Below are positions 8,378-40,655 of a stretch of 64,000 nt of DNA, piece after piece. Source of the stretch: Candidatus Latescibacterota bacterium (lineage in GTDB: Bacteria > Latescibacterota > CBDCVA01). The stretch is taken from assembly GCA_965222935.1 (NCBI GenBank), contig CBDCVA010000001.1, forward strand, positions 196,093-260,092. The letters are read 5' to 3'. Under the pieces are notes generated by a model that did no database searches, was not told the origin of the DNA, and saw only the letters and a list, made by a program, of their open reading frames with translations. How positions within the stretch are numbered: the first letter of the stretch is position 1; each line of letters begins with the position of its first letter. The translations under genes and the position numbers were made by a program.

Positions 8378-8400
8378 GCCATTGCCGCCTGCAATCGGTT

Positions 8401-9540: not shown

Positions 9541-9623
9541 GCGATGGCTGAGCCGGGAAAAGCAGCGCCCGTGGGGCCAAAGCGCTTGACTTCGCTTGTC
9601 CTGCGTACCTACATTTGGGCTGA

Positions 9624-10454: not shown

Positions 10455-10492
10455 CGTCCGCTCGGGCACGACGACGTCCGGCTCGATCCAGC

Positions 10493-12504: not shown

Positions 12505-13817
12505 ACGTGCTGGCGTCACTCCAGACCATCGCGGGCTTCGTTCTCATCCTGGGGCCTCTCATTTTCGTCCACGAGTTGGGCCATTTCCTGGCCGCGAAAT
12601 GGGCCGGCATTCGCGTCGAGCGCTTCTCTCTCGGCTATCCGCCCAAGATGTTCGGCATCACCATAGGCGTGACGGAGTACTGTATCTCCTGGATCCCCTT
12701 CGGCGGCTACATCAAGATGGCCGGCGGTTCCTTCGAAACAGGCATTGCCACGGGCGCTCCCGACGAGTTCGCTTCCAAACCCATCGCCGCTCGTCTCGCC
12801 GTTCTGGCGGCGGGTCCGTTGGCGAACATCTTCATCGCGTTTGCTCTTTTCTTTTTCATGGCCGTGGCGTTTGGTGCGCCGACTTATTCCACCACACGCC
12901 TCGGCACCGTGGAGCCCGGTTCGCCCGCCGAACGCGCGGGCCTACGGACTGGCGACCGGATCGTCGCGGTTGGGGGCGAGGCCGTTGTGGACTGGGAGGA
13001 ACTGGCTAAGGGGCTGATGATGGCCTATGCCGAGCCCGTGATGCTGCTGACTGAGCGGGAGGGAGAGCGGCTGGAGATGCTGATCCCGGCGGTTAGCGGC
13101 GACGAACCCTTCGGGATTGAGCCCTGGATTCCGGCGGAGATCGGACGCCTCGAACCCGGAGAGCCAGCGGAGGGGGCGGGCCTAAGGCCAGGTGACCTCA
13201 TCGTCGAGGTGGCGGGTGAACCCATTGCGCAGTGGCGCGACCTCTACGAGGCCGTGCGAGAGCGGCCGGAGTTTCCCACGTCCGTCGTGTGGCGGCGTGG
13301 CGATCAGCAGTTGAGCACGGAAATTGTGCCGCGGGCTTTCAAGGTACCCGGAGAAGCCGACGGAGAGGAAAGGGTAGTGGGCCGCCTGGGTGTCTACCCT
13401 ATGCTGGAGATTAAGCGCGTCGGTCCGATCTCGGGTCTGGTCGTGGCGGGACAGCAGACTTACCTGATATCGTCTCTGATCCTGGATTTCCTCCACCGCG
13501 CGCTCACGGGCAGGGCGTCGAAGGAGGAACTGAGCGGCCCGGTCATGATCATCCGCATGGCTGGCGAGAGCGTGCGCGGAGGGTTTACGTCGCTCTTGAG
13601 CTTCATCGCTTTGCTCGGCGTCAACCTCGGGCTGCTCAACCTCTTCCCGCTTCCCGTCCTGGACGGCGGCCAGATGGTCATCCTTGGCGCTGAAGCCGCC
13701 ATCCGGCGCCCATTTTCGCTGCGCGTGAGGCTGGTCATCCAGCAGGTCGGGCTTGCGTTTCTAGTCCTGCTCATGTTGCTCGTTACAGTCAACGACGTAG
13801 TGCGTCTGTTCAACTAG
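12501..13817 (+). CDS. rseP: RIP metalloprotease RseP (site-2 protease)
   Basis: HELGHFLAA HEXXH in TM1, PDZ domains, LDGG motif near the C-terminus; overlaps the dxr stop. Confidence 0.9.
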   Translation: MNVLASLQTIAGFVLILGPLIFVHELGHFLAAKWAGIRVERFSLGYPPKMFGITIGVTEYCISWIPFGGYIKMAGGSFETGIATGAPDEFASKPIAARLAVLAAGPLANIFIAFALFFFMAVAFGAPTYSTTRLGTVEPGSPAERAGLRTGDRIVAVGGEAVVDWEELAKGLMMAYAEPVMLLTEREGERLEMLIPAVSGDEPFGIEPWIPAEIGRLEPGEPAEGAGLRPGDLIVEVAGEPIAQWRDLYEAVRERPEFPTSVVWRRGDQQLSTEIVPRAFKVPGEADGEERVVGRLGVYPMLEIKRVGPISGLVVAGQQTYLISSLILDFLHRALTGRASKEELSGPVMIIRMAGESVRGGFTSLLSFIALLGVNLGLLNLFPLPVLDGGQMVILGAEAAIRRPFSLRVRLVIQQVGLAFLVLLMLLVTVNDVVRLFN

Positions 13818-13849
13818 CTCGAACCCCGACAGCGCAGAAGAAACGCCTC

Positions 13850-14278
13850 TCACGGCACCGGAGCCGCATGGGTCGGCTCCGGCCCCGGTATGGAGAACGA
13901 CCGCCGGGCGGCGGCCACGCGCAGCTCATCGCGCACCCTCGCTAGAATGTGCTCCCAGCGCTGGGGATCCTCCCCCACGTGCTCCAACGCGCGCCAGACC
14001 TCCGGCATTGAGCGGGCCACTTCGCCGAAGAGCCGCTCGTGCTCCGCCTTCATCTGACCGGGCACGGTCGCGTAGTCGGACGTGGCGAGCAGGGCTTTTG
14101 CCAATAGAAGTGCCAGCACCTCGTCGCTCATGGAGAAGGGCTCACAGCAGGCGATACAGGCCGCCATAAGGGGTCCCAGAAGCGCACTCATGCGCCACGA
14201 ACTGCTCACACGATAGGTGAATATAATGGCACTAACCCCATTAAAGAATACACTATACCTCAAAACTCCTCTTGACAA
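13850..14278 (-). CDS. Hypothetical protein
   Basis: 142-aa ORF convergent with rseP, no recognisable motif; its real start may be an internal Met. Confidence 0.3.
   Translation of the reverse strand: MSRGVLRYSVFFNGVSAIIFTYRVSSSWRMSALLGPLMAACIACCEPFSMSDEVLALLLAKALLATSDYATVPGQMKAEHERLFGEVARSMPEVWRALEHVGEDPQRWEHILARVRDELRVAAARRSFSIPGPEPTHAAPVP
13858..13882. terminator. Strong GC hairpin (ccggagccg-catgggt-cggctccgg) between convergent rseP and a minus-strand ORF
   Basis: Perfect 9-bp inverted repeat seen in sequence; no clear T-tract. Confidence 0.3.
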
Positions 14279-14301
14279 GGGGGGTATAGTGGTGTAAAAT
14301 G
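14273..14301 (+). promoter_or_regulatory. Near-consensus sigma70 promoter (TTGACA-17nt-TAAAAT) upstream of mraZ, followed by G-rich TGGG repeats
   Basis: TTGACA at 14273-14278, 17-nt spacer, TAAAAT at 14296-14301. The ~200-nt leader begins tgggggggtgtgggttgg (candidate MraZ-box-like repeats). Confidence 0.5.
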
Positions 14302-14505
14302 GGGGGGTGTGGGTTGGTTGCGTCGCGGGCGTCGCCCTTAAGCACTTTCTTCCAACGGCACCCGCGACTGTGCCGACCGGGATAACCTGGGGAGGTTACT
14401 CTTTTGGTCATGGCGACTTTCCAGAAGGGTGTGGGCAGTGGTTGCATTCTAGCCTTTGGGCGTGGGGACGGCGCATAGCGCCGACTGCTCCACGACGGCA
14501 CAGTT

Positions 14506-14943
14506 ATGTCGACCTTCTACGGCGAGTTCGAATATACAATAGATGAGAAAGGCCGGCTCAATGTTCCCACGGAACTGCGGCGCGGCCTGGAACCGGAAGC
14601 TGGGGAAAGCCTCGTTATCACGCGCGGTTACGACGGCCACTTGATCGCCTACGGCATCGACGACTGGAGCCACAAGCAGGAAGCGATCCGCAAACTGCCC
14701 ATGGGCGACCCCCGCGCGCGCAACATCAAACGTCTGTTCGGATCGCGCGCCACTGTCCAGCGATTGGACGGCCAGGGGCGCATTCGCATCTCACAGCAGT
14801 TGCTCGAATCTGTCGGCATTCAAGACCGGGTCAAGATCGTGGGCACGGTCGATTGCTTCGAGTTGTGGAACCCCCAGCACTATGACGATCAAATGTCCAA
14901 GGTCGACTTCGGGGGCCAGGACCTGAGCGATTTCATCCTGTAA
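14506..14943 (+). CDS. mraZ: Division/cell wall cluster transcriptional regulator MraZ
   Basis: Two MraZ/AbrB-like repeats (FYGEFEYTIDEKGRLNVP; GQGRIRISQQL). Confidence 0.9.
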   Translation: MSTFYGEFEYTIDEKGRLNVPTELRRGLEPEAGESLVITRGYDGHLIAYGIDDWSHKQEAIRKLPMGDPRARNIKRLFGSRATVQRLDGQGRIRISQQLLESVGIQDRVKIVGTVDCFELWNPQHYDDQMSKVDFGGQDLSDFIL

Positions 14944-14952
14944 CGGCACGCC

Positions 14953-15885
14953 ATGCCCACCATCTACCATATGCCTGTCCTGTGCGAGCGCGTCGTGACG
15001 ACGCTCGCGCGGTTTTCCGAGGGCGTCTACGTCGATGCGACCGTCGGCGGTGGTGGACATGCGGCGGCGCTCCTGGATGGGCTCGGCCCCGGAGCGCGGC
15101 TCGTCGCCATCGATCGCGATCCAGAGGCCATCGAAGCCGCCCACGAACGCCTGGCTCCGTACGGTGATCGGGTGCGCTTGTTCTGCACGACGTTTTCGAG
15201 ACTCGGAGAGGCAGTCGCCGAGACGGGCTTTGGTCCCGTCCACGGCGTGCTGTTCGATCTCGGCGTTTCCTGGTACCAGCTTGATGCCGCTGAGCGTGGT
15301 TTCAGTCACCGGCTCCCGGGGCCCCTGGATATGCGCATGGACCCTTCGCAGGCAGTGCCCGCGCAGGAGATAGTGGCTGGTGCGCCGGAGGATGAGCTTA
15401 CTGCGTTGCTCCGCGGTTACGGTGAGGTCCCACATGCACGACGCGTCGCCAGGCGGATCATTGCCGCCCGCCGGGAACGGCCCATCCGGACGACGCAGGA
15501 CCTCGCGGCCCTGATCGGACCGCTCGTCGCTCCAGCGGTGCAGGTCCGCTATCTCTCGCAGGTCTTTCAGGCGCTGCGCATCGCAGTCAACGACGAGCTC
15601 GGCGAGCTCGAGCGAGGCCTAGTCGCAGCGCTCGGTTGCCTGGCTCCAGGTGGGATTCTGGGAGTGATCGCGTACCATTCGCTTGAGGATCGCTTGGTTA
15701 AGCGTTTCTTCCGCGTTGAGGAGAGCGGCTGCATCTGTCCGCCCGATCTGCCGGTTTGCGCTTGTGGGCAGCGCCCGACGCTGCGCCTTGTGACGCGGCG
15801 GGTGATCCGGCCGTCGGAGGTGGAGGTGGCACATAACACGAGGGCTCGCAGCGCGTGTTTTCGGGCGGCGCAGCGGCGGGGTTGA
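14953..15885 (+). CDS. rsmH: 16S rRNA (cytosine1402-N4)-methyltransferase
   Basis: YVDATVGGGGHA SAM-binding motif and MraW family conservation. Confidence 0.9.
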   Translation: MPTIYHMPVLCERVVTTLARFSEGVYVDATVGGGGHAAALLDGLGPGARLVAIDRDPEAIEAAHERLAPYGDRVRLFCTTFSRLGEAVAETGFGPVHGVLFDLGVSWYQLDAAERGFSHRLPGPLDMRMDPSQAVPAQEIVAGAPEDELTALLRGYGEVPHARRVARRIIAARRERPIRTTQDLAALIGPLVAPAVQVRYLSQVFQALRIAVNDELGELERGLVAALGCLAPGGILGVIAYHSLEDRLVKRFFRVEESGCICPPDLPVCACGQRPTLRLVTRRVIRPSEVEVAHNTRARSACFRAAQRRG

Positions 15886-15960
15886 TGTGCGCAAGGGAAT
15901 CTCGGCTGAGAGGCGATTCCAGGTCGAAAGAGCGGCGGCGGCGCTCATAAGGGGGAGACA

Positions 15961-16242
15961 ATGTCCGCGCGGGTTGGTCTGATTCTGCTCTTCGTCAGTG
16001 TGGTGGCGATGCTTGCACACGTCTGGGGGCTGACCCGGTTGGTCGAGATGACCCAGCAGCGCGCGCGTTTAAGCGCTCGTGTGGATTCGCTGGAGAGCGC
16101 AAACAGCCACCTGCGGGCTGAAGTGGGGCAACTGGCCTCGGCCGACCGCGTTGAGCGCTTGGCCAAATCGCGCCTGGGCCTGGACTTTAAGAGCACGGAG
16201 ATCCGCGCAGTGCAAGTTTTGGTGCCCGCGGAGGAGCGGTAG
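15961..16242 (+). CDS. ftsL: Cell division protein FtsL-like
   Basis: 93 aa; N-terminal TM helix followed by coiled-coil; canonical position between rsmH and ftsI. Confidence 0.6.
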   Translation: MSARVGLILLFVSVVAMLAHVWGLTRLVEMTQQRARLSARVDSLESANSHLRAEVGQLASADRVERLAKSRLGLDFKSTEIRAVQVLVPAEER

Positions 16243-16267
16243 ACCCCTCGTCGCTGTGGGGAGGCAC

Positions 16268-18052
16268 ATGGAACCGGAGACGCTGAAGCTCGCCATCCGG
16301 GGGCGCCGACGCTTTCACGCTCTGATGGTTGGCTTTGTTGTCCTGTGGACTGGCCTTGCGCTGCGTCTATTCCTGCTTCAGGTCATGGATGGGCCACACT
16401 ACCGGGGGCTCGCGCAGAGACAACAGCAGAAGCGACAGAGGCTTCTTGCGCGTCGCGGCCGCATCCTGGACCGGCACTTGACTCCGCTGGTCGACAACGT
16501 TCTGGCGCGCCGCGTTGGAGCCGACCCTCGGAAGCTCAATGTACCCAAGGCTGTGCCGGTCATCACGGCCATCACGGGAGAGGACTCCGGGCTCCTACGC
16601 CAGCGGCTGGCGACACGATCGCCATTCGTCTGGTTAGCGCGTGGGGTGACGCCCGAGCAGGCGCGCGCACTGTCCGATGTTTCCGACTCGCCGATGCGCG
16701 TGGAGGTCGAGGTACAAAGGCATTATCCGCTGGGCGCTCTGGCGGGCTCGGTGATAGGGTTCACGGATGTGGATGGCGAGGGGATCGAAGGGATTGAGGC
16801 TGCCTTTGACGCCCAACTGGCCGGGCGCGACGCGTGGCGCGTAGTTCAACGGAACGGCGCCACCGGCGAGGTCTTCGCCTCAGTGGCGGACGGTGACGAA
16901 TCACCGCGCGATGGGGACGATATAGTCGTGACGCTTGATGCGCGCTACCAGGCCATCGTCGAAGCTGAGCTGGCTGCGACCGTGCGCGAGCACGACGCGC
17001 GGGGTGGAGTGGCGGTATTCCTGGCGCCGGCCACGGGCGAGATCCTCGCTATGGCGCAGGTGCCCAACGTGCATCCGTCCGCCTTTGAGCTTGCCTCATC
17101 CCGAGCGCGCCGCAACCGCTCGATCACCGATGGTTACGAACCGGGGTCGACCTTCAAGCTGGTAACGGCTGCGGCGGCTCTGGAGAGCGGCCGCTTCGGC
17201 CCTTCGACCCTCGTAGATTGCCACGGCGGACAACTGACCGTGGGTGGAGATGTCTTTCACGACCACCACCCTCTCTATGAACTCAGCTTTCAGGAGGTCT
17301 TCGCTCAGTCGAGCAACCTGGGCATGATCAGCGCCGCTCTCAAGGTCGGGGCACGTCCATTCTATCTGACGGCCCGCCAGTTCGGTTTTGGCCACGAGAC
17401 TGGCCTGGGTCTGCCCGGTGAGGCGAAGGGCATCCTGCGTGAGCCAACGGCCTGGTCAGCGCGCTCACTGCCCAGCCTGGCCATCGGGCAGGAGGTGCTG
17501 GTCACGCCACTACAGTTGGCTTGCGCATACGCCGTGGCTGCCAATGGGGGGAAGCTGGTTCCACCCAGGATCGTGCGCTACTTCCTGAGCTCGGACGGCG
17601 GGGTTCGTGACCCATTACCGTCGGCGGTGGGCAGGCGGGTCATCTCAGAGGCTACCGCACGTGAACTTCTGGCGTTCATGCGGACGTGCGTGGCGTCGGG
17701 TACGGGGCGCTCTGCGCAGGTGGAGGGGCTTGCCGTCGGTGGGAAGACCGGAACTGCCCAGAAAAGCGCCCCGGGCCGTAGGGGCTATCTTAAGAACGAA
17801 GTCGTGGTTTCATTCGTGGGAATTTGTCCGCTGGAGGCTCCTCGCATGGTGGGGCTGGTCGTCATCGACGAACCGCGGGGACGCGCATGGGGCGGCACGG
17901 TGGCGGCTCCGGCCTTTCGCCGCATGGTGCGACGGATGTTCGCACTCGATGGTGCTGTGCACGCGCGCGCGGTCGATAGCGTCTCCCCGGTCTCCGAGGG
18001 CGAGATCAGCCGGGATAGGCGCAGTGGGTGGTTGGCATCGAGTATGTTGTGA
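16268..18052 (+). CDS. ftsI: Peptidoglycan D,D-transpeptidase FtsI (class B PBP)
   Basis: Start MEPETLKL at ATG 16268; TM anchor; STFK, SSN and KTGT active-site motifs. The track ORF 16079 has a spurious 5' extension overlapping ftsL. Confidence 0.85.
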   Translation: MEPETLKLAIRGRRRFHALMVGFVVLWTGLALRLFLLQVMDGPHYRGLAQRQQQKRQRLLARRGRILDRHLTPLVDNVLARRVGADPRKLNVPKAVPVITAITGEDSGLLRQRLATRSPFVWLARGVTPEQARALSDVSDSPMRVEVEVQRHYPLGALAGSVIGFTDVDGEGIEGIEAAFDAQLAGRDAWRVVQRNGATGEVFASVADGDESPRDGDDIVVTLDARYQAIVEAELAATVREHDARGGVAVFLAPATGEILAMAQVPNVHPSAFELASSRARRNRSITDGYEPGSTFKLVTAAAALESGRFGPSTLVDCHGGQLTVGGDVFHDHHPLYELSFQEVFAQSSNLGMISAALKVGARPFYLTARQFGFGHETGLGLPGEAKGILREPTAWSARSLPSLAIGQEVLVTPLQLACAYAVAANGGKLVPPRIVRYFLSSDGGVRDPLPSAVGRRVISEATARELLAFMRTCVASGTGRSAQVEGLAVGGKTGTAQKSAPGRRGYLKNEVVVSFVGICPLEAPRMVGLVVIDEPRGRAWGGTVAAPAFRRMVRRMFALDGAVHARAVDSVSPVSEGEISRDRRSGWLASSML

Positions 18053-18418
18053 GGCGAAGAACTCTGAGGGAAAGATGCGTCTTGGTGAAGGTTCGTGCCC
18101 GGGATGTGCGCCGGACGCTGGCTACGGTGGCCAGCAGGTTTCTAGGGAATCCGATGCCACAGCACGGGTCATTCAGAGCCGGGGGGGCCGATGGTTGGGC
18201 GTCGGTCAGTCATATGGGCGCGCCTGTCCTAAAGGCGGGGGACGGCGCAACGTCCGGAGATTGACTGTGACGCATGATGGGTCTCCGCGCAGCCCGGTTC
18301 TACGACTCGTTCTCCCGAGGGTCACGAGCCTTCACCGGTTTCAGTTACCGCGCTCGGTGCGTTCGCTGCGCACACCCGGGCGCGGTAACGCATTTTTGAT
18401 GAGGTCCCGCAGCTAACG

Positions 18419-19882
18419 ATGGTTCCACTCTCGTTCGATCAGGTGCGTCGTTTCGTCGGCGGTCGTCTCGAATGGCGCGTCACCCCTGCGGGGTCCGCCC
18501 CATCCGTGCAGCGGGTCGTGACCGACTCGCGGGTTGCCACCGACGGCGACCTCTTCATCGCGCTCGGGGGTACCCAGCATGATGGCCACGCCTTCGTTGC
18601 CGATGCGTGTGAGCGGGGTGCGGTGGGGGCCATCGTTCGGGCGGATTGGGCAGAGGCTCGAGGGCTGAGGCCCGGTGCTCGGTTTGCTCTCGTTCGCGTG
18701 CCCGAAACGCTGCGTGCCTATGGCCAGCTCGCGGCGGGCTATCGCCGAACGCGCTCGATCCAGGTCGTGGCCGTGACGGGCTCGAACGGCAAAACGACGA
18801 CCAAGGCGTTCATCGCGTCCATCCTCGCCATGCGTTATCGTGTGCGCCAGAGTATCGCGAGCTACAACAATGAGGTGGGTGTCCCGGCAACGCTTCTCTC
18901 AGCCGACGCCGCCGATGAGGTCGTGGTCGTCGAGATGGGGGCCCGCCAACCGGGCGACCTGGCGTACGTCTGTGAGATCGCTCAACCCACGGCGGGTGTG
19001 ATCACCAACATCGGCAGGGCTCACCTGGAAACGCTCGGTTCGCTTGAAGGGGTCATGCGCGCCAAACGCGAGCTCGTCGAAGCGCTGGGTGCATCCGGGG
19101 TCGCCATCCTGCCCTGGGATGACCCGTATTACGCCTCCCTTCGCGCCGCAGCCCGCTGTCGCTCGGTGTCCTTCGGATTCGAGACCGGCGCCGAGATGCG
19201 CGGGCGTGAGCTGGCGTTAACGTCGGACGCCCGGCCCAGTTTCTCTCTTGGCGCGGAACGGCTGACGTTACGCACACCCGGTGCGCACAATGCTCGAAAT
19301 GCTCTCGGGGCTCTCGCTTTAGGCACGACGTTCGGCGTGTCGTTGATCGCCATGCGCACAGCTCTCGAAGCGGTGCGGCCGGAAGGGATGCGGCTGGAGG
19401 AGCGCGAAGTCGGCGGCCTACGCCTGCTCGTGGACTGCTACAACGCTAATCCCGATTCCGCTGCCGCTGCTTTGGATGTGCTTGCGGCGAGTAGCGTCGC
19501 TGATGGTGGGCGTCGGCTGGCCTTTCTGGGCGAGATGCACGAGGTGGGCACAGGAACGGAAGACTCGCACGAGGAACTGGGGCGGCGGGCGGCCGAGGCT
19601 GGCGTGGCGGAACTGGTCGGCGTCGGCGCCTGGGCGGAGGCGGTTGTGCGGGGCGCTGTGGCCGCCGGCTTGCCCATGTCGCGGGCTCACGTTTGCGCTT
19701 CCAACGCGGCGGCGGCGCTCGTAGAGACCCTGGCACGACCCGGCGATCTGGTCCTGATCAAAGGCTCGCGCGCCGCCCGCATGGAGGCGATCGTGAACGC
19801 ATTGGCGGGTGGCATGGGTGCTGCCCGAGCGCCCGAGTGTGGATCGTCACCCCTCCATGCCCGGGCGGATGCCGTCGTCTGA
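18419..19882 (+). CDS. murF: UDP-N-acetylmuramoyl-tripeptide--D-alanyl-D-alanine ligase
   Basis: GSNGKTTTK P-loop; the MurF-specific SYNNEVGVPATLL motif rules out MurE. Confidence 0.85.
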   Translation: MVPLSFDQVRRFVGGRLEWRVTPAGSAPSVQRVVTDSRVATDGDLFIALGGTQHDGHAFVADACERGAVGAIVRADWAEARGLRPGARFALVRVPETLRAYGQLAAGYRRTRSIQVVAVTGSNGKTTTKAFIASILAMRYRVRQSIASYNNEVGVPATLLSADAADEVVVVEMGARQPGDLAYVCEIAQPTAGVITNIGRAHLETLGSLEGVMRAKRELVEALGASGVAILPWDDPYYASLRAAARCRSVSFGFETGAEMRGRELALTSDARPSFSLGAERLTLRTPGAHNARNALGALALGTTFGVSLIAMRTALEAVRPEGMRLEEREVGGLRLLVDCYNANPDSAAAALDVLAASSVADGGRRLAFLGEMHEVGTGTEDSHEELGRRAAEAGVAELVGVGAWAEAVVRGAVAAGLPMSRAHVCASNAAAALVETLARPGDLVLIKGSRAARMEAIVNALAGGMGAARAPECGSSPLHARADAVV

Positions 19883-19913
19883 GCTCGTGTCTCCGGAGGC
19901 AGCGTAGAAAGCG

Positions 19914-20999
19914 ATGCTCTACCACTTGCTGTACCCTTTGCGCGATGTCTTTTCTGCTTTCAACATATTCCGGTACATTACTTTCCGAGCTACCTATGCC
20001 ACCATCACGGCGCTTCTGATCTGCTTTGTCGTTGGGCCCATGATCATCGCCTGGCTGCGTCGTTCCGCGGTGACCCAGGTCATCCGGGCTGACGGTCCCG
20101 AGTCCCACCAGGCCAAGGTGGGCACGCCCACCATGGGCGGGCTGATCATTCTGTTGGCGGTGGTCGTCTCCACGATCTTATGGGCTCCGCTGAACAATGG
20201 CTATGTGCTTCTGGCGCTTTTGGCGATGGTCTGGCTGGGTGCCCTGGGCTTCATCGACGATACCCTCAAGATACGCACCGCTGGCGGTAGGGGGTTGGCG
20301 CCGCGCTACAAGCTCGCCGCACAGGGCGCCTTGGGCGTTGTGATCGGGACGATCCTGTACGTTCACCCTCTGGCTCCTGAGTTCGGCACTCAAACCAGTG
20401 TGCCTTTTTTCAAGGACGTTCACATCCATTTCCACTGGTTTTACATCCCCGCCGTGGCGCTAGTCATCACCGGGGCATCCAATGCCGTCAACCTCACCGA
20501 TGGCCTTGACGGTCTGGCCATTGGCCTGGTCGGGATTGTCACCAGCGCTTTCGCCTTGATCTGCTACGTCACCGGCCGGTCTACCTCCAGCGAGTACCTG
20601 CGCATCGACTATCTACCTGGCTCGGGCGAGCTGACCATCTTCTGCATGGCGCTTTTGGGTGCCAGCTTGGGGTTTTTGTGGTTCAACGCCAGACCGGCGC
20701 AGGTCATGATGGGCGACACGGGCGCGCTCGCTCTAGGCGGCGCCATTGGTACCCTCGCCGTGCTCTCGAAGATGGAACTTGTGCTTGTGATCATCGGCGG
20801 TGTCTTCGTCATCGAAGCGCTATCGGTGATCGCTCAGGTCCTGTCCTTCCGTTACCGTCACAAGCGGGTCCTCCGCATGGCTCCCTTGCACCACCATTTC
20901 GAGCTCTGCGGCTGGCCCGAATCGAAGGTCGTCATACGGTTCTGGATTCTGGGCGTGCTCTTTGCGCTTCTAGGGCTTTCCACCTTCAAGATTCGATGA
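19914..20999 (+). CDS. mraY: Phospho-N-acetylmuramoyl-pentapeptide transferase
   Basis: 10-TM protein with MraY motifs (NAVNLTDGLDGLA, HHHFE). Confidence 0.9.
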   Translation: MLYHLLYPLRDVFSAFNIFRYITFRATYATITALLICFVVGPMIIAWLRRSAVTQVIRADGPESHQAKVGTPTMGGLIILLAVVVSTILWAPLNNGYVLLALLAMVWLGALGFIDDTLKIRTAGGRGLAPRYKLAAQGALGVVIGTILYVHPLAPEFGTQTSVPFFKDVHIHFHWFYIPAVALVITGASNAVNLTDGLDGLAIGLVGIVTSAFALICYVTGRSTSSEYLRIDYLPGSGELTIFCMALLGASLGFLWFNARPAQVMMGDTGALALGGAIGTLAVLSKMELVLVIIGGVFVIEALSVIAQVLSFRYRHKRVLRMAPLHHHFELCGWPESKVVIRFWILGVLFALLGLSTFKIR

Positions 21000-22174
21000 C
21001 CGCCCCGGGCGGCGACTCTGCGGATTCTGGGGCGCGTGTCGGGGGAGTGGACCGTGCCCTTCTGGCTATCGCCCTCATCCTGGTGGCCCTGGGAGTGGTC
21101 ATGGTTTTCAGTGCCAGTGCTTTAGTAGCGGCGGAGCGTTTCGGCAAAGCTACGTTCTTCGCCGAGCGGCACCTCGTGCGGGCCGTCATCGGAATCGCCT
21201 TGATGCTCACCCTGGCGCAGCTTCCCGCCGACGTTTTCGCCCGATTCGCCCGGCCGGCGATGCTCCTGACTTTGGGTCTCCTGCTCCTGCTGCTGTTGGG
21301 TGCGTGGATCGGCTGGCCTCCGACCATCAACGGTGTGCGGCGTTGGATCACGCTGGGACCGTTCACCTTCCAACCCTCAGAGCTCGCGAAGGTGGCGCTG
21401 GTGCTCTACCTGGCCGAGGCACTGCCGCGTAAAGGGCGTCGGGTGCGAAAGTTCTGGATGGGTCTTGCGGGTCCGCTCATAGTGGTCCTGTTCGTCGCGG
21501 CACTGGTGGCCGCCGAGCCAGACCTGAGCGGCGCCAGCGCCGTCGTGCTCATCGCCCTTGCGGTGTTCTGGCTGGGCGGCGTGCGGCTGAGCCACGTCGT
21601 TCTCCTCGGCGGCACGGCAATTGTGTGCTTTCTGGCTGTCGTGCTGGGAGTAGGGCACGGTATCGATCGGGTTGTCGGCGGCTTCCTCGACCGTTCGGCG
21701 CACGCGCATCAAGCGGGTTATCACCTCTCCCAGTCGTTGCTCGGTCTGGGCTCCGGCGGCCTCTGGGGACTGGGCTTGGGGGCTTCGCGCCAGAAAATGT
21801 TCTTCCTGCCGGAACCCCACACGGACTTTATCTTCTCTGTGATCGGCGAGGAACTGGGTTTCATCGGAGCGTTGTTGACGTGCGGGCTGTTCATCGCCTA
21901 TGCTTTCCGGGCGTGGGCCATCGCGCGGCGTGCGCCGACGCAGCAGGGTTTTCTGCTCGCCGCGGGGCTGGCAGGGACGCTGGGACTATCGGCCTGGCTG
22001 CACGTGGCCGTGGTGCTGGGCGTGGTGCCGCCCACCGGCTTGCCCTTGCCTTTCGTCAGTTACGGCGGCACGGCGCTCGTGATGGCGTTGGCCTCCACGG
22101 GTATCATCCTCAACATCTCGCGAACGTTGGAGCCTCAGCGACGGTGGCTGAAACCCGTCGGCATGGTGCCATGA
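20996..22174 (+). CDS. ftsW: Peptidoglycan glycosyltransferase FtsW (SEDS family)
   Basis: ATG at 20996 overlaps the mraY stop; SEDS features (QPSE motif, many TM helices). The long track ORF 20678 is an artefactual extension. Confidence 0.85.
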   Translation: MTAPGGDSADSGARVGGVDRALLAIALILVALGVVMVFSASALVAAERFGKATFFAERHLVRAVIGIALMLTLAQLPADVFARFARPAMLLTLGLLLLLLLGAWIGWPPTINGVRRWITLGPFTFQPSELAKVALVLYLAEALPRKGRRVRKFWMGLAGPLIVVLFVAALVAAEPDLSGASAVVLIALAVFWLGGVRLSHVVLLGGTAIVCFLAVVLGVGHGIDRVVGGFLDRSAHAHQAGYHLSQSLLGLGSGGLWGLGLGASRQKMFFLPEPHTDFIFSVIGEELGFIGALLTCGLFIAYAFRAWAIARRAPTQQGFLLAAGLAGTLGLSAWLHVAVVLGVVPPTGLPLPFVSYGGTALVMALASTGIILNISRTLEPQRRWLKPVGMVP

Positions 22175-23286
22175 GGCTGGTCTTCGCTGGCGGGGGAACG
22201 GGGGGCCACGTCTACCCCGCCCTGGCGGTGGCGGAAGAGGTGGCCCGACGTGCGCCAGGAAGCCAGATCCTCTTTCTGGGGACGGCGGGTGGGCTCGAAA
22301 GCCGCGCTATCCCCTCAGCCGGTTTCCCTCTCCGGTCCGTCTGGGCACGCCCTCTGGCCCGGCGGCTCTCATGGGCGCTGGCGTTCTGGCCGCTTCACCT
22401 TGCGCGTGGGGTCCTGAGCGCCTGCACGGCCCTGGCACGTTTCAAGCCGCATGTGGTTGTCGGTAGCGGTGGCTACGTCAGCGGTCCCGCGGGCATCGCC
22501 GCGCTTCTCTGCGGTGTGCCGTTGGTGCTCTTGGAACAGAATATTTTACCTGGATTAGTGACGCGGCTTCTGGCGCCGCTGGCCCGCCGCGTCTATGTGT
22601 CATCGGCTGATACGCTCCGGTTTCTGGACAGACATAGCAATGTCGCCGTCGCGGGCAATCCCCTTCGGCTCGGCTTCGGTCTCATGGGCCGCGCGGAAGC
22701 GCTTCGCCGCTTGAATCTCCCTCCCGATGAAGGCCGCCTCACGGTCTTGGTAACCGGTGGTAGCCAGGGCTCCGTGCCGATCAACGAGGCTGTCCTGATA
22801 GGGCTTTCCCTGTTGGGGACGGAAAAAGTGCGGTTTTTGTGGCAGACCGGCCCCTCGGATTTCGATCGACTCCAAAGGGCGTGTGCCGGGTTGCCCATCG
22901 AGGTACACCTTCGATCTTACATTGATGAGATGGCTGCGGCGTACGCCGTCTGCGATCTGGTCGTCGCACGTAGCGGTGCCATGACGGTTGCGGAGCTGAC
23001 CACCTGCGGCCTTCCGTCCGTTTTGATCCCACTCCCGCATGCTGCCGCCGGCCATCAGACTGCCAACGCTCGGCATCTGGAGCGTACGGGTGCCTGCATG
23101 GTGATCCCGCAGGCCGAGCTTGCGCCCCAGCGGCTGGCCTCGGCCATCGCTGAGTTGGCCGCCGATCCACGGCGTCTGAGGGAGATGGGTGAGCATGCAC
23201 GATCTCTAGCGCAAAGCGATGCAAGGAACCACATTGCGGAGGACTTGACGCGCAGATGGGAACAGCGCCTGAAAACGGACTGTTGA
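22171..23286 (+). CDS. murG: UDP-N-acetylglucosamine--N-acetylmuramyl-(pentapeptide) pyrophosphoryl-undecaprenol N-acetylglucosamine transferase
   Basis: ATGA overlap with ftsW; GGTGGHVYPALAVA N-terminus. Confidence 0.9.
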   Translation: MRLVFAGGGTGGHVYPALAVAEEVARRAPGSQILFLGTAGGLESRAIPSAGFPLRSVWARPLARRLSWALAFWPLHLARGVLSACTALARFKPHVVVGSGGYVSGPAGIAALLCGVPLVLLEQNILPGLVTRLLAPLARRVYVSSADTLRFLDRHSNVAVAGNPLRLGFGLMGRAEALRRLNLPPDEGRLTVLVTGGSQGSVPINEAVLIGLSLLGTEKVRFLWQTGPSDFDRLQRACAGLPIEVHLRSYIDEMAAAYAVCDLVVARSGAMTVAELTTCGLPSVLIPLPHAAAGHQTANARHLERTGACMVIPQAELAPQRLASAIAELAADPRRLREMGEHARSLAQSDARNHIAEDLTRRWEQRLKTDC

Positions 23287-24722
23287 AGGCACCTAGCGCC
23301 CTGGATGCGCCGAGCCAGGCCTATCGCCGGCTTCATCTAGTGGGTATCGGCGGTGCAGGGATGAGTGCTCTGGCGGAACTCCTCTTGCGCCGCGGCTTCG
23401 CCGTCTCGGGCTCGGACCTAGTGAGTTCGGGAATGACGCGGCGGCTGGCGCAAATGGGCGCCCGGGTCGCCATCGGTCACGCGGCTGAGCACACGCTGGG
23501 CGTTGATCTCGTCATCTATTCGGCCGCTGTGCCGCCAACCAATGTCGAGCTCGAAGCCGCGCGCGCGGCCCGCGTTCCTACGATCCGCCGCGCGGAGGCC
23601 CTCGGCGTCCTGGGTTGTGGAAAGGAAACGATCGCCGTCGGGGGAACGCACGGCAAGACGACGACCGCATCGCTCACATGTGCGGTTCTGACCGAGGCAG
23701 GGCTGGACCCCACCGCCCTTGTGGGCGGGCGGATACGGGTCCTCAATTCCGGGACGCGGCTGGGCGAGGGTCCGCATCTGGTCGTCGAGGCGGATGAGTT
23801 CGGTCGCTCCTTCCTGACGCTTCGTCCCGTGGTCACCGTCGTCACCAGCGTGGAAGGGGATCATCTGGATTGCTATCATGACCTGGCCGACCTAGAAGAG
23901 GCGTTCGTCCGGTTCGCCAGCTCCACCTCGCCCTCGGGGCGGACCATCTTCTGTGCGGATGACCCTGGCGCCCGGAGGTTGGTTTCTCGCGTGGACGTGC
24001 CCTCTCTGCTGTACGGGTTCGGGCCCGACGCGCACGTTCGCGCGGACGCGATGGAGCAGGTGGGGTGGTCGACGGCCTTTACATTACGGGTGGACGGGCG
24101 CACCGCCGGGCGTGCGACGCTTCGGGCTCCGGGCTGCCACAACGTCTCCAACGCCTTGGGGGCCGCCGCCGTGGGCGTGGCGCTGGGTGTGGAGCTGTCG
24201 GCGATCCTCAGGGGACTCGATGCGTGGCAGGGCGTACACCGCCGGTTCGAGATCAAAGGCACCGCGGGCAATACGGTGGTGGTGGACGATTATGCGCACC
24301 ACCCCACGGAGATCCGAGCCACGCTGGTTGCTGCGCGCGCCCTTCGATCCGGGCCAATCGTTGCTGTTTTTCAACCCCACCTGTACTCACGCACGCGGGA
24401 CTTTGCCGATGACTTCGGCGCCGCCTTAGCCGAAGCGGACGCCGTGGTCATCATGGACGTTTACCCTGCGCGCGAGGAGCCGTTGCCCGGGGTGAGTGGG
24501 GCGCTCGTGGCCGACGCCTGCCTGCGCGCTGGGTGCGCTGACGTGACATATGTGCCGGATCGTCAACGACTCATGGAAGTCGTCCGCCATCGGGCCGCCG
24601 AGGCCGCGATGGTGCTCACCTTGGGCGCGGGTGACATCGACGCCCTTGGCGAGGTCCTGGTGGACGAACTGCGCCTGGCGCACACCGTTGGGCCGGTTCG
24701 GCCCAGCGCCAAAGGGGGGTGA
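23256..24722 (+). CDS. murC: UDP-N-acetylmuramate--L-alanine ligase
   Basis: HLVGIGGAGMSALAELL, GTHGKTTT P-loop. Confidence 0.9.
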   Translation: MGTAPENGLLKAPSALDAPSQAYRRLHLVGIGGAGMSALAELLLRRGFAVSGSDLVSSGMTRRLAQMGARVAIGHAAEHTLGVDLVIYSAAVPPTNVELEAARAARVPTIRRAEALGVLGCGKETIAVGGTHGKTTTASLTCAVLTEAGLDPTALVGGRIRVLNSGTRLGEGPHLVVEADEFGRSFLTLRPVVTVVTSVEGDHLDCYHDLADLEEAFVRFASSTSPSGRTIFCADDPGARRLVSRVDVPSLLYGFGPDAHVRADAMEQVGWSTAFTLRVDGRTAGRATLRAPGCHNVSNALGAAAVGVALGVELSAILRGLDAWQGVHRRFEIKGTAGNTVVVDDYAHHPTEIRATLVAARALRSGPIVAVFQPHLYSRTRDFADDFGAALAEADAVVIMDVYPAREEPLPGVSGALVADACLRAGCADVTYVPDRQRLMEVVRHRAAEAAMVLTLGAGDIDALGEVLVDELRLAHTVGPVRPSAKGG

Positions 24723-24728
24723 GCCGAG

Positions 24729-25646
24729 GTGGCTAACGTGGGCGAGCGGCAGCGACTGGCGGGCAGCGACGATCTGGCCTCCGTGGGTACCGACGTCCGG
24801 CGGGACGAAAACCTGAGGGGCCTCACCACGCTCGGCGTCGGTGGCCCGGCCGCCGTGGTCGTCCGCGCGCGGGAGGAGGCCGACATCATCCGCGCGCTCG
24901 CCCTTGCGGAGCGGTCCGGGCGGCCCGTTCGCGTCATCGGTGCGGGTACAAATCTCCTGGCCAGCGATGCGGGTTTCGACGGAGTCATCATCAAGCTGGG
25001 GCGCGGCTTTCGGGGAGTACAGCGGGAGGGTCATTGCGTCGAAATCGGCGCCGCTGCGACGATGAGCCGGCTGGTGGATTTCTGTTTACGGGAGGGGCTC
25101 ACCGGCGTGGAATTCGCCGGTCAGATCCCTGGTACCGTCGGGGGAGCGATCGCGGGCAATGCTGGCGCCTATGACGGTGAGACCGCCGATCGGCTTGAGG
25201 CAGTGTGGGGGGTGGACATCCCCACGCGCCAGCCCGTCCGCCTTTCGCGCGAAGAGATCACTTTCGCCTACCGGAACTCCACATTGCGGAATCGGGTGGT
25301 GATTACGCGGGCCCGTTTCGCTCTGGAGCCCGGGGAAGATGCCGCCAGCCGCGAACGGGTCCGCGTGCTTAGGGGCCATCGCACGGCGACGCAGCCGATG
25401 GGTGTCCGGACGGCGGGTTGTGTGTTCAAGAATCCGCCCGGTCTTTCCGCCGGGGCGCTGTTGGACCGCGCCCAACTCAAAGGCCAAGCCGTGCGCGACG
25501 CCGCCATGAGCGAGACGCATGCGAATTTTCTGATCAACCTCGGCGCTGCGACGGAGGTCGATGTCCGTGAGCTCATCGCTCTTGCCCGGCGCGTGATCCT
25601 CCATAGCTACGGCATTCGCTTGGAATTGGAGCTTGTGGAGCTATGA
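24729..25646 (+). CDS. murB: UDP-N-acetylenolpyruvoylglucosamine reductase
   Basis: FAD-binding domain (LTTLGVGG...), MurB C-terminal domain. Confidence 0.85.
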   Translation: MANVGERQRLAGSDDLASVGTDVRRDENLRGLTTLGVGGPAAVVVRAREEADIIRALALAERSGRPVRVIGAGTNLLASDAGFDGVIIKLGRGFRGVQREGHCVEIGAAATMSRLVDFCLREGLTGVEFAGQIPGTVGGAIAGNAGAYDGETADRLEAVWGVDIPTRQPVRLSREEITFAYRNSTLRNRVVITRARFALEPGEDAASRERVRVLRGHRTATQPMGVRTAGCVFKNPPGLSAGALLDRAQLKGQAVRDAAMSETHANFLINLGAATEVDVRELIALARRVILHSYGIRLELELVEL

Positions 25647-26452
25647 ACCGCGCACTGCCCTATGCCGGGTCCAGAGGTCCACGTCCCATGGCTCGCCGGG
25701 CGAGGCGAGGGCGCCGGTTTGTACGCTACATCGTCGGAGCGGTCGGCGTGGGGGCCGCACTTGCGGCTCTGGCCTGGTCCGGACATGCTCTGCCTTCAAG
25801 CCTGGCTCAAATGCCATTGTTTTCGGTCGGGCGCGTTGAGGTCGTGGGCGCGGGCCTGCCTGAGGTCGGCGAGCTTGTCGCGGCTGCGGGGCTGGCAGCA
25901 CAGGAGCGCGTCGGACAGCTCGATCTTCAGGCCGCTGCGGAGCGCCTTCTCGCCCTGCCTCCCGTGCGAAAGGCCGATCTCACCTGGCTCCCTCCGGACC
26001 GCGTGCGCATACGCATCACCAAGCGGGAGCCCGTGGCGCTCCTCAGCCTCGACCAAACCTACGGCGTGGACCGCGATCTATGGTGCTTCACGATTCCTTC
26101 CGATGCTCTTCCCACGGGGCTTCCAATGGTCACGGGCGTGAGTCCGTCCGGTGTGGCCCCCAGTGGGCGTTTGACCAACCCAGCGGTGGGGGAGGCGATT
26201 CGCGTTGTCGATGCACTTGGGGCAACGGATCCGGCACTGGCGTCGCAAGTGGCCGAGGTCGCCATGACGCCGGAGGGCATTGATCTCGTGCTTCGGAACG
26301 GGCGTGTGCGCCTTGGGCGCGGTCGATACGAGGACAAGCTCCGGGTCGTATTGATGGTACTGGATGACCTGGCGAGCCGAAGTGAGACATATGCCGAGAT
26401 CGATGTGCGGTTCAGGGAGTTGGCCGTGGTTCGGGGTCCTCGAGGCGCGTAA
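25643..26452 (+). CDS. ftsQ: Cell division protein FtsQ (POTRA domain)
   Basis: Basic N-terminus, one TM segment, POTRA-like region; canonical position before ftsA. Confidence 0.7.
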   Translation: MNRALPYAGSRGPRPMARRARRGRRFVRYIVGAVGVGAALAALAWSGHALPSSLAQMPLFSVGRVEVVGAGLPEVGELVAAAGLAAQERVGQLDLQAAAERLLALPPVRKADLTWLPPDRVRIRITKREPVALLSLDQTYGVDRDLWCFTIPSDALPTGLPMVTGVSPSGVAPSGRLTNPAVGEAIRVVDALGATDPALASQVAEVAMTPEGIDLVLRNGRVRLGRGRYEDKLRVVLMVLDDLASRSETYAEIDVRFRELAVVRGPRGA

Positions 26453-26468
26453 TCTTTAACCGCGCAAG

Positions 26469-27716
26469 GTGTGGGAGAAAGCGAGCGGCGTGGCAAAGTC
26501 GGGCGATCTGATTGTCGGGCTGGACATCGGGACGACGAAGACGCTCTGCGTCGTGGCCGAGGCGGTCCCGGACGAGCTCCCCAGCGTCATTGGCATGGGT
26601 GTGTCATCCACAGCCGGGCTCTACAGTGGTTCCGTGGTGAACATGGAGGACACCGTGGGGGCCATCCGAGAGGCTGTGGCTAGCGCCGAACGGATGGTCG
26701 GTGTGCAGGTCGAACAGGTTTACGCCGGCATCATGGGCGAGCACGTTTACGGCCATAATGGCCGCGGCACCGTCGCGGTGTCAGGTCCGGGCAATGAGAT
26801 CACCTCTGGCGATGTCGACCGGGTCTTGGCGCAGGCCGAGGCCATCACTCTTCCCGATGGACGAGAGGTCCTTCACGTGCTCCCCCGGCAGTTCATCGTA
26901 GACGACCAGCAAGGCATCCGCGAGCCCTTGGGCATCACGGGCACCCGCTTGGAGGCCGATGTGCACGTGGTCACCGCTCAGAGCACCCCGATCTTGACTC
27001 TCGAGAGAGGCGTCGAGCGGGCGGGCTTCGCCGTGCGTGGGATGGTGCTTGAACCTTTGGCGTCGAGCTATGCCGTCCTCACACCGGACGAGAAGCAGCT
27101 AGGCTGCGTTCTGGTCGACATCGGCGGCGGCACGACCGACCTGGCCGTGTTCTTCCGCGGGAGCATCTGGCACACGGCCGTCGTGCCTCTGGGTGGCAAT
27201 AACGTGACCGAGGACATTGCTGTGGGTCTGGAGATGCCGGTCGCCTGCGCGGAGAAGCTGAAGTGCGAAAGGGGTAGTGCGCTGGCCGAAATGGTCGACG
27301 ATGACGAGCAGATCGAGATAGAAGCGTCGGGCGACGACGGAGCACGGTCGGTCTCCCGCACGTTTCTGGCTGAGATTATCGAAGCCCGGTTGGAGGAGAT
27401 TTTCCAGCTCACATGCAGGGAGCTCCGACGAGCCGAATGCATCGAACTGTTGGGGAGCGGTATGATCCTGACCGGAGGCGGCACCCTTCTGGATGGGGTG
27501 GTGGATGTGGCGCGGAAGATTTTTGGGCGCTCGGTGCGGGTTGGGACGCCTCGGGGCGTGCGCATGGCCCGCGATGACTTCGCGAGTCCCATGTACGCGA
27601 CCGGCGTCGGGCTCGTGGTCTATGGATTCGAAGCGCTCAGCGTCGAAGGCCGCCAGGGGCGTGTACGCAAGGGTTGGTCGGGGCGATTGGGCGCATGGCT
27701 TCGCGATTTCTTCTAG
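26469..27716 (+). CDS. ftsA: Cell division protein FtsA
   Basis: Actin-like ATPase (VGLDIGTTK, DIGGGTTD). Confidence 0.9.
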   Translation: MWEKASGVAKSGDLIVGLDIGTTKTLCVVAEAVPDELPSVIGMGVSSTAGLYSGSVVNMEDTVGAIREAVASAERMVGVQVEQVYAGIMGEHVYGHNGRGTVAVSGPGNEITSGDVDRVLAQAEAITLPDGREVLHVLPRQFIVDDQQGIREPLGITGTRLEADVHVVTAQSTPILTLERGVERAGFAVRGMVLEPLASSYAVLTPDEKQLGCVLVDIGGGTTDLAVFFRGSIWHTAVVPLGGNNVTEDIAVGLEMPVACAEKLKCERGSALAEMVDDDEQIEIEASGDDGARSVSRTFLAEIIEARLEEIFQLTCRELRRAECIELLGSGMILTGGGTLLDGVVDVARKIFGRSVRVGTPRGVRMARDDFASPMYATGVGLVVYGFEALSVEGRQGRVRKGWSGRLGAWLRDFF

Positions 27717-27775
27717 CGGCGCCACCGCGGCCTGCTGCGGTTGGCAAAGAGAGCTACGACGCGCGGGGGTGGACG

Positions 27776-28942
27776 ATGTCGGATGACGATAGCACGAGGA
27801 TCGAGATGGCCGAGCATCCTGGCAACGGTGCTCGCATGAAAGTGGTGGGGGTCGGTGGCGCTGGTGGGAACGCGGTGGATCGCATGATAGCGGCCCATCT
27901 TGCGGGCGTCGAGTTCATCGCGATCAATACGGACCTTCAGGCCCTCGGCCAGTCGCGGGCACCCACCAAGGTGCAGATCGGCACCAACCTCACCCGGGGG
28001 CTCGGCGCTGGCGGTGACCCCCAGGTGGGCCGCGAGGCTGCCCTCGAAGATCGCGAGACCGTTGTCGAGATCCTAGATGGATCGGACATGGTCTTCGTCG
28101 CCGCTGGGATGGGCGGCGGCACCGGCACAGGCGCTGCGCCCCTCGTCGCCGAGGTGGCGCGGGAACATGGGGCCTTGACCGTTGGGATCGTGACCAAGCC
28201 CTTCGTCTTCGAGGGAGCCAGGCGGCTCGACCAGGCCCAGGAGGGGATCGATGCCCTGAAGGCTCGCGTGGACACCTTGATCGTCATTCCCAATCAGCGC
28301 CTTATGTTGGTCACCGACGAGAACACGACGCTTCTGGACGCCTTCAAGCTGGCTGACGAAGTGCTGCTTCACGCCACACGCGGCATCTCCGATATCATTG
28401 CCATACCGGGCCTGATCAACCGCGATTTCAATGACGTCAAGGCGGTGATGCACGATATGGGCGATGCCCTCCTTGGGACTGGCACCGCTAGTGGGGAGAA
28501 ACGCGCGATCGATGCGGCCCAGCGGGCGGTCAAGAGCCCTCTCCTAGAGGAGATCTCGATCGAGGGTGCAAAGGCCGTTCTCCTCAACATCTCGGCGGGT
28601 CCCAACCTCAAGCTCGCCGAGGTGGATGCCGCTGCAACGGTTGTCAGCGAGGCAGCGGGTGCTGGGGCCGGCATTTTCATGGGCGCCGTCATCCGGGAAG
28701 ATATGGCCGAAGAGCTGACCGTCACCGTGATCGCCACTGGCTTCGGGGATGAGGAGGATGACCTTCCTGGGTCGCCCTCCTCTGAGGTGGTGCAGGAAGA
28801 GATCGGAGTACCGGCTATCGAGCGCAAACCGACTGCTAAGATCGAAAAGTTGCGGCGAAGCCGCTTGCAGGGATCGTCCACGAAAGAGGCGAAAGACCAG
28901 TTGGACGTCCCGGCCTTTATACGGAAGCGACTTCGCTCGTAG
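27776..28942 (+). CDS. ftsZ: Cell division GTPase FtsZ
   Basis: GVGGAGGNAV tubulin signature, T7 loop, conserved C-terminal tail DVPAFIRKR. Start chosen at ATG 27776; the track ORF 27674 has a 5' extension overlapping ftsA. Confidence 0.9.
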   Translation: MSDDDSTRIEMAEHPGNGARMKVVGVGGAGGNAVDRMIAAHLAGVEFIAINTDLQALGQSRAPTKVQIGTNLTRGLGAGGDPQVGREAALEDRETVVEILDGSDMVFVAAGMGGGTGTGAAPLVAEVAREHGALTVGIVTKPFVFEGARRLDQAQEGIDALKARVDTLIVIPNQRLMLVTDENTTLLDAFKLADEVLLHATRGISDIIAIPGLINRDFNDVKAVMHDMGDALLGTGTASGEKRAIDAAQRAVKSPLLEEISIEGAKAVLLNISAGPNLKLAEVDAAATVVSEAAGAGAGIFMGAVIREDMAEELTVTVIATGFGDEEDDLPGSPSSEVVQEEIGVPAIERKPTAKIEKLRRSRLQGSSTKEAKDQLDVPAFIRKRLRS

Positions 28943-34280: not shown

Positions 34281-34357
34281 TGGTGGGCGATACCGGATTC
34301 GAACCAGTGACCTCCTGCTTGTAAGGCAGGCGCTCTCGCCATCTGAGCTAATCGCCC
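34281..34357 (-). tRNA. tRNA-Val (anticodon UAC), CCA encoded
   Basis: Hand-folded cloverleaf. Acceptor GGGCGAT/ATCGCCC, D-stem GCTC/GAGC, anticodon stem CCTGC/GCAGG with loop CUUACAA (U33, A37), T-stem ACTGG/CCGGT, T-loop TTCGAAT, discriminator A plus CCA. Confidence 0.85.
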
Positions 34358-40653: not shown

Positions 40654-40655
40654 CT

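Follow-up and report, generated by a model that had tools for sequence, protein, structure and literature searches.

A 64-kb stretch of contig CBDCVA010000001.1 (hereafter the window) carries a cell-division and cell-wall (dcw) operon in which the place of murE, between ftsI and murF, is taken by a 366-nt spacer that very probably still holds the degraded remains of murE. The explanation that we favour, and consider likely, is that of a functional dcw operon that lost murE and murD secondarily and in which the murE relic was kept in place as RNA. If so, the loss of murE has been caught with its remains in place, the gene having been destroyed in situ rather than being primarily absent, and the locus shows in a concrete case by what route an essential gene can drop out of a conserved operon. 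Conservation of the relic above the neutral rate, with base pairs kept, suggests in addition that pseudogene sequence was reused as an RNA element. What is of interest in this well-known cluster, to a modest degree, is that the relic lies in situ and that it has apparently been reused as a structured RNA; practical importance is modest too, as variants of the cluster are frequent and the organism has not been cultured, although the lineage is perhaps of taxonomic interest.

Searches with NCBIfam and Pfam resolve a co-directional block of 13 genes, mraZ-rsmH-ftsL-ftsI-[366 nt]-murF-mraY-ftsW-murG-murC-murB-ftsQ-ftsA-ftsZ (Table 1), in agreement with the gene order and gap sizes given by an initial annotation made from the letters alone, including a distance of exactly 366 nt between ftsI and murF and the overlap of mraY with ftsW. 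That annotation had also described murE, murD and ddl as absent from the cluster, and this holds for the whole window: in its 64 kb, neither tblastn with Escherichia coli and relatives' proteins nor profile scans in six frames turned up any of the three genes. The 4-nt overlap between mraY and ftsW leaves no space for murD, and the 41 nt between murB and ftsQ leave none for ddl.

The ftsI–murF spacer and its similarity to MurE

Several observations identify the segment at 18037–18243, which shares the last 16 nt of ftsI in a different frame, as very probably a true murE relic. First, a profile built from 64 MurE sequences of loci that we fetched (see below) gives this segment a score of 15.6 bits (E = 2.5e-7 at Z = 1); the peptide aligned with it is IEYVVRRRTLRERCVLVKVRARDVRRTLATVASRFLGNPMPQHGSFRAGGADGWASVSHMGAPVLKAGD. 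The highest scores reached by the same profile on null sequences were 8.8 bits, among 1524 six-frame chunks of the window outside murF and murC, and 7.5 bits, among 6000 translations of the shuffled spacer. Second, the similarity is specific to MurE: MurF, MurD and MurC profiles made in the same way scored −3.5 to −4.6 on the same relic sequences from the window and its relatives. Third, the match spans a characteristic MurE segment, 'V.V.D.R.ALA.lA..FyG.P' (with the core 'A..F.G.P'), and continues up to the P-loop, where GxTGTNGKT has become AGGADGWAS, with K replaced by W.

Fourth, the match recurs in the lineage, with 13.5 bits in the related locus L083 and 4.3 bits in the more distant L085, where two in-frame stops interrupt it. 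Fifth, the MurE proteins of the nearest relatives outside the lineage, L087 and L088, align by tblastn with 18067–18237 (34% identical across 59 residues; E = 2.5e-4 for a search of the whole window), and a BLASTP comparison of the 78-codon open reading frame (ORF) at this site with MurE of L088 gave 35.4 bits and 34% identity over 59 amino acids. Among the 18,950 NCBIfam models, the sole families listed for this ORF were two MurE models, both on the same region (E = 0.15 and 0.18). The relic is visible only with the nearest relatives' MurE or with the MurE profile; tblastn with E. coli MurE, MurD and DdlB (taken from NC_000913) against the window returned only cross-matches to murF and murC and missed it.

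The segment is thus derived from MurE by a significant and paralogue-specific match at the syntenic position, but it is no full-length gene: it reaches 10.7 bits against the TIGR01085 cut-off of 257, and its ruined P-loop marks it as a pseudogene relic. The initial annotation had described the spacer as simply non-coding. It indeed lacks an intact gene, yet it contains the degraded murE and is under purifying selection, probably as a structured RNA. The same annotation had named a degraded murE within 18053–18418 as something that would overturn its account of the missing ligase genes. Such a relic was looked for and found, yet it backs the alternative that the annotation had offered, a secondary event, because a relic in situ means that murE formerly sat between ftsI and murF. 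No comparable trace was obtained for the other two genes: murD and ddl signal was absent from every 500-nt six-frame chunk of the 64 kb in a profile scan, and thus there is no relic of either.

An alternative would be that murE and murD were never part of the dcw cluster in this lineage, that the spacer is intergenic or regulatory DNA of the ordinary kind and that its similarity to MurE arose by chance. The modest score of the relic and the library-wide E values of the curated MurE models would fit this, as would L029, L047 and L076, three loci in which ftsI and murF are likewise adjacent and whose gaps, used as a negative control, contain no MurE relic. We nevertheless regard primary absence as improbable. 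The score lies well above both null maxima; the match is MurE-specific, on the right strand and at the canonical murE site, running from 'A..F.G.P' to the P-loop; it is found again in L083 and weakly in L085; and the nearest relatives hold murE and murD in place.

A second alternative, to which we assign a negligible probability, is that chimeric joins or collapse at the ftsI–murF and mraY–ftsW junctions conceal a murE and murD that are really there. The window comes from a contig of 752,750 bp belonging to a metagenome-assembled genome (MAG), and MAGs can carry misjoins; a chimeric assembly had also been named at the outset as a possible refutation. The junctions are nevertheless repeated elsewhere. 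An independent Logan short-read assembly of ERR13605531 (L082) has the same arrangement and an identical spacer sequence. Long-read contigs from three further samples, at 27x, 8x and 2x coverage, repeat the junctions as well: those of L083 and L084 (MurF 94% identical) measure 4.2 Mb (ctg836636_27x_l of ERZ25067264) and 1.4 Mb, and that of L085 (MurF 76% identical) 34.5 kb. G+C content and composition are even across the region, and the mraY–ftsW overlap is a clean ATGA. With the same junctions in four independent assemblies, chimerism is excluded.

The 3′ end of ftsI bears on how murE may have been lost. Homology of FtsI to its relatives stops at residue 558 (nt 17941), and the remaining tail of 36 amino acids (17942–18052) is poorly conserved, with 61% nucleotide identity to L085. 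FtsI here lacks a C-terminal extension of about 100 amino acids that carries a PASTA domain and that is present in L087 (4984–6963). In L083 and L084, a TGG-to-TGA change ends FtsI 7 codons sooner (L083 9594–9614). One deletion may have removed the end of ftsI together with about 35 codons from the start of murE.

The 78-amino-acid relic ORF, identical to that at 18028–18264, also occurs on a 3778-nt JGI contig as P0271, annotated as a 'hypothetical protein'; this annotation is probably a pseudogene fragment miscalled as a gene.

Related clusters and the fate of murE, murD and ddl

The lineage is rare, deep-branching and, by the names attached to its MraY matches, near the FCB-group phyla, and it is strikingly isolated. 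In a set of 5.8 billion clustered proteins, just two clusters come close to MurF (94% and 76% identical), and the next is at most 44% identical. For MraY, the best-conserved protein here, identity falls from 100% to no more than 66% outside the lineage, and its named best matches belong to Latescibacteria, Zixibacteria, KSB1 and Calditrichaeota, which are FCB-group phyla. Omp85, BamB-like and LptD genes in the window indicate a diderm. The lineage may represent an undescribed high-rank taxon from long-read soil metagenomes.

The nearest detectable relatives by MraY (66%), L087 (SRR26701722) and L088 (SRR11308170), allowed the comparison of synteny with related taxa that the initial annotation had proposed. 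Both have the order mraZ-rsmH-ftsL-ftsI-murE-murF-mraY-murD-ftsW-murG-(AIRS gene)-murC-murB-ftsQ-ftsA-ftsZ, and so retain murE and murD and lack ddl. As these relatives keep murE, murD and murB without ddl, this is the background state, and the loss of murE and murD is specific to the lineage of the window. By parsimony, given the mraY-murD-ftsW order in L087 and L088, the loss of murD is supported as a secondary one. The likeness to the two relatives, and to the pattern described for the FCB superphylum (PMC8871954), includes the murC-murB-ftsQ succession without ddl and a PD40/Omp85-type gene in the upstream neighbourhood; in L087 (1–2774) and L088 (1–1815), large PD40/Tricorn/Omp85 proteins are encoded directly upstream of mraZ. 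Unlike the window, L087 and L088 keep murE, murD, the PASTA extension of FtsI and, between murG and murC, a gene of the AIRS/AIRS_C family (L087 15063–16196, L088 15517–16611). In L088, ftsW and murG are additionally separated by a small phosphoribosyltransferase-like gene that is not in the window.

These comparisons divide the earlier proposal that three essential ligase genes were relocated secondarily. The in situ relic supports it for murE and parsimony supports a loss of murD; a single event for all three genes is not supported. The absence of ddl is shared background, ddl being missing between murB and ftsQ in L087 and L088, and loss of murB and ddlB from the cluster has been described for the FCB superphylum (PMC8871954). 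The window departs from that published pattern in having kept murB. The presence of murB, which the initial annotation had also pointed out, is confirmed, but it is no addition: the inferred ancestral dcw cluster had 16–17 genes including murB and ddlB, and it is the E. coli cluster that lacks murA and murB (PMC8871954). A murB inside the cluster is hence ancestral and ordinary.

More distant clusters place these losses in context. We fetched 80 loci from GTDB species representatives by MurF; they come from distant phyla only (at most 43% identity), and the species of the window is not among them. Nearly all of those with ftsI upstream of murF carry murE between the two, the exceptions being L029 (a 'Cytophagia' MAG), L047 (a Binatia MAG) and L076 (Faecalibacterium, with murE after murG), and in many Clostridia mraY is followed by ftsW without murD between them. 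In L029, L047, L076 and many Clostridia, murE or murD thus left the cluster independently in several lineages. The three exceptions resemble the window in the direct adjacency of ftsI and murF and differ from it in having neither a relic in the gap nor a match to the spacer RNA model described below; the gaps of L029 and L047 are short. The L029 locus (7665–18300, 'uncultured Cytophagia bacterium') is reduced further still: it reads mraZ-rsmH-ftsI-murF-mraY-ftsW-murG-ftsQ-ftsA-ftsZ, without murE, murD, murC, murB or ddl, and there is no relic in its ftsI–murF gap of 41 nt. Individual dcw genes are missing from many lineages, and lineage-specific loss is common (PMC8871954; see also PMC10214165).

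A third alternative is that MurE, MurD and Ddl have truly been lost and that the stem peptide is built or salvaged by a non-canonical route. None of the three genes was located in the 64 kb, in the 10 kb past the 3′ end of the window, which holds polysaccharide genes, or through a protein search with the relic peptide for a paralogous working murE, which returned only the identical 78-amino-acid relic ORF (P0271). The extreme isolation of the lineage, with MurF identity falling from 76% to at most 44% across the 5.8 billion proteins, would also suit an unusual pathway. We consider true loss very improbable, however. Intact genes under coding constraint encode MurC (which is not Mpl), MurF, MurB, MraY, MurG, FtsW and FtsI; the activities of MurD, MurE and Ddl are required by MurC's product and by MurF's substrates; and the DNA examined amounts to no more than some 2% of a genome of about 4 Mb. 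Because murB, murC, murF, mraY and murG are intact and constrained and the pathway needs the three missing activities, functional murE, murD and ddl would be expected elsewhere in the genome.

The favoured explanation, a functional operon with secondary loss of murE and murD, would then run as follows. The ancestor would have had the order ftsI-murE-murF-mraY-murD-ftsW, with murB and without ddl. Deletions would have destroyed murE in place, leaving about 200 nt of its 5′ third, and the deletion that reached into ftsI probably also took its PASTA-bearing C-terminal extension. Clean removal of murD would have produced the mraY/ftsW overlap. Working murE, murD and ddl genes presumably lie elsewhere in the genome, as relocated duplicates or acquired copies that made the native ones dispensable; for murE, the decay in place itself points to such a second copy, whether duplicated or acquired.

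A candidate structured RNA in the spacer

Comparison with relatives indicates that the spacer is probably a structured RNA under purifying selection. Its core is 74% identical to that of L085 (251 sites), compared with 55–63% identity at the 4-fold degenerate sites of eight flanking genes and 64% in the rseP–mraZ intergenic region, and the conservation exceeds that of the 4-fold sites with a binomial p of ~2e-5. Substitutions in the spacer relative to L085 fall 24/28/16 by codon phase, that is, without periodicity, versus 95/258/105 in ftsI. The L085 spacer has stops in all frames, and the spacers of the window and L083 differ by a 1-nt indel. Given the lack of codon periodicity and the 1-nt indel, the constraint on the spacer is not coding.

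These data bear directly on a fourth alternative, namely that the spacer encodes a small protein through the 78-codon ORF at 18028–18264, perhaps a shortened MurE N-domain peptide that took on a new role. No stop interrupts the frame in the window or, in L083, over the aligned relic, a gene caller annotated the ORF (P0271) and the sequence is conserved. In the ORF frame, however, substitutions relative to L085 number 28/16/24 at codon positions 1/2/3, where genuine genes have position 3 account for about 60%; two in-frame stops are present in L085; the ORF has its GTG start codon within ftsI and lacks an evident ribosome-binding site; and the pattern of substitution keeps RNA pairing instead. 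With substitution periodicity missing and stops present, we rejected a small-protein gene, to which we give very little credence. A dispersed repeat or miniature inverted-repeat transposable element was likewise rejected, there being no second copy in the window.

The RNA is predicted on the operon strand, as a branched hairpin some 255 nt long. The + strand folds with −182.7 kcal/mol (minimum free energy (MFE) z −3.7) versus −146.4 kcal/mol (z −2.1) for the − strand. Folded alone, L085 gives the same architecture, with a closing helix of 17–19 bp, two small hairpins at a three-way junction, and a long arm (z −3.7). The RNAalifold consensus of the window, L083 and L085 has 95 pairs, supported by 6 compensatory double changes and ~25 compatible single changes, and 97.5% of the cells of these consensus pairs are paired, compared with 32–49% when the partners are slid. 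Of the 100 pairs in the window's own MFE structure, 84 are kept in L085, whereas random re-placement of the 68 substitutions, repeated 5000 times, kept 72.8 on average and never more than 82 (p < 0.0002). Unpaired sites are no better conserved than paired ones (31% versus 23.5% substituted). With no conserved unpaired core, and with copies found only in the lineage by the searches given below, the element does not have the character of a riboswitch or cis-regulatory leader.

Downstream of this candidate, a terminator-like hairpin ends 20 nt before the ATG of murF. Its stem (18344–18389; ΔG −34.1 kcal/mol, z −5.3) is identical in L083. As a candidate intrinsic terminator it has a strong stem, but its U-run is just 5 nt long and comes after 'GCA', and the hairpin is absent in L085.

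We suggest, tentatively and as somewhat less probable than the alternative that it does no such thing, that the dead murE fragment was exapted as a maintained RNA of ~255 nt that controls processing, termination or stability between the mraZ–ftsI and murF–ftsZ halves of the operon. Under the favoured explanation, the relic-bearing spacer would have been retained as a stable branched RNA hairpin, followed in the closest genomes by the hairpin with its U-run, and it would most likely act as a processing, stability or partial-termination element in the polycistronic transcript, setting the expression of murF–ftsZ relative to mraZ–ftsI. Non-coding RNA in dcw transcripts has precedents in the E. 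coli small RNA FtsO, inside ftsI, and the antisense RNA StfZ, at ftsA/ftsZ. Unlike these, the element in the window sits between genes, in a pseudogene relic, and has a putative function; it has no similarity to them in sequence or structure and no Rfam match.

Several observations weigh against the explanation as a whole. Besides the relic's score of just 15.6 bits, with library-wide NCBIfam E values of 0.15–0.18, and the failure to locate functional murE, murD and ddl in the DNA and protein searches described above, they concern the RNA. Rfam 15 gave no match at gathering thresholds and, at E ≤ 10, only irrelevant eukaryotic models with 16–17 bits; in 1.6 Mb of loci, a trimmed covariance model of the element (R1) matched no copies but those of the lineage itself; and two DNA-pattern scans of metagenomes for the spacer RNA returned 0 matches. 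The evidence for the RNA comes from what are effectively two independent sequences, one of them, L085, being a 2x-coverage contig with sequencing errors. The terminator-like hairpin is missing from that contig, which has a 37-nt deletion. Finally, it is awkward to have a terminator 20 nt before an essential gene and no promoter in between, unless read-through is substantial.

Composition of the cluster and its surroundings

The locus is an ordinary dcw operon, intact and compact. It has the one-strand run from mraZ/rsmH to ftsA/ftsZ in conserved relative order by which dcw clusters are recognized, here with 13 genes, and it is not of the longest or ancestral form, in which murC, murD, murE, murF and ddl all lie inside the cluster; its only ligase genes are murF and murC. 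Reduced clusters of this kind are still counted as dcw in the literature (PMC8871954). The gene next to the spacer is murF itself: it scores above the curated cut-off, with the best murE, murC and murD models at 98, 73 and 69 bits.

The E. coli cluster, mraZ-rsmH-ftsL-ftsI-murE-murF-mraY-murD-ftsW-murG-murC-ddlB-ftsQ-ftsA-ftsZ, is like that of the window in lying on one strand, in the relative order of the shared genes (counted as 13), in its tight or overlapping junctions and in a promoter-like site near mraZ. The window differs in lacking murE, murD and ddl, in having murB and in the 366-nt gap with a relic at the place of murE.

Table 1. Features of the dcw cluster and of the ftsI–murF spacer (positions in the window)
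Feature	Position	Strand	Evidence and remarks
Candidate sigma-70-like promoter	14272–14300	+	TTGACA-17-TAAAAT, 11/12 positions; consensus match alone; ~200 nt 5′ of mraZ
mraZ	14506–14943	+	TIGR00242 100 bits; PF02381
rsmH (mraW)	14953–15885	+	TIGR00006 307 bits
ftsL	15961–16242	+	TIGR02209 41.8 bits, slightly below cut-off 42.45; PF04977 DivIC; canonical position
ftsI (class B penicillin-binding protein)	16268–18052	+	NCBIfam, Pfam
Degraded murE relic (very probable)	18037–18243	+	MurE profile positions ~36–104 of 456; frame 1
ftsI–murF spacer	18053–18418	+	366 nt; without intact gene
Conserved branched-hairpin RNA candidate	18084–18337	+	~255 nt; closing helix 18084–18100 with 18320–18336
Terminator-like hairpin	18344–18398	+	Stem arms 18344–18357 and 18376–18389, then GCAUUUUUG; ends 20 nt before murF ATG
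murF	18419–19882	+	TIGR01143 373.5 bits, cut-off 288.6
mraY	19914–20999	+	TIGR00445 397 bits
ftsW	20996–22174	+	TIGR02614 326 bits; 4-nt overlap with mraY stop (ATGA)
murG	22171–23286	+	TIGR01133 308 bits
murC	23256–24722	+	488 amino acids; TIGR01082 460 bits versus mpl 156 bits; no ddl fusion; not mpl
murB	24729–25646	+	NF010480 281 bits
ftsQ	25688–26452	+	PF08478 and PF03799; starts 41 nt past murB
ftsA	26490–27716	+	TIGR01174 400 bits
ftsZ	27806–28942	+	TIGR00065 400 bits

Upstream of the cluster lie uppS-cdsA-dxr-rseP. The 688-nt region between rseP and mraZ (13818–14505) contains a minus-strand ORF (13850–14278) without a family match, which is called as 93–123 amino acids in the Logan assembly and in relatives. 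About 6–11 kb upstream of the dcw genes, at 3013–8377, a dockerin-domain protein, a cohesin-domain protein and a PD40/Omp85 protein of 934 amino acids are encoded in a row.

Other genes of the window have functions unrelated to the cluster and encode CoA transferases, 2-oxoacid:ferredoxin oxidoreductases, transporters, LptD and PriA. The sole RNA gene in the window by Rfam and ARAGORN is a tRNA-Val(TAC) at 34281–34357 on the minus strand. The 2-oxoacid:ferredoxin oxidoreductase genes form two tandem alpha-gamma/beta pairs at 38932–44274, with POR/POR_N followed by TPP_enzyme_C/PFO_beta_C, twice.

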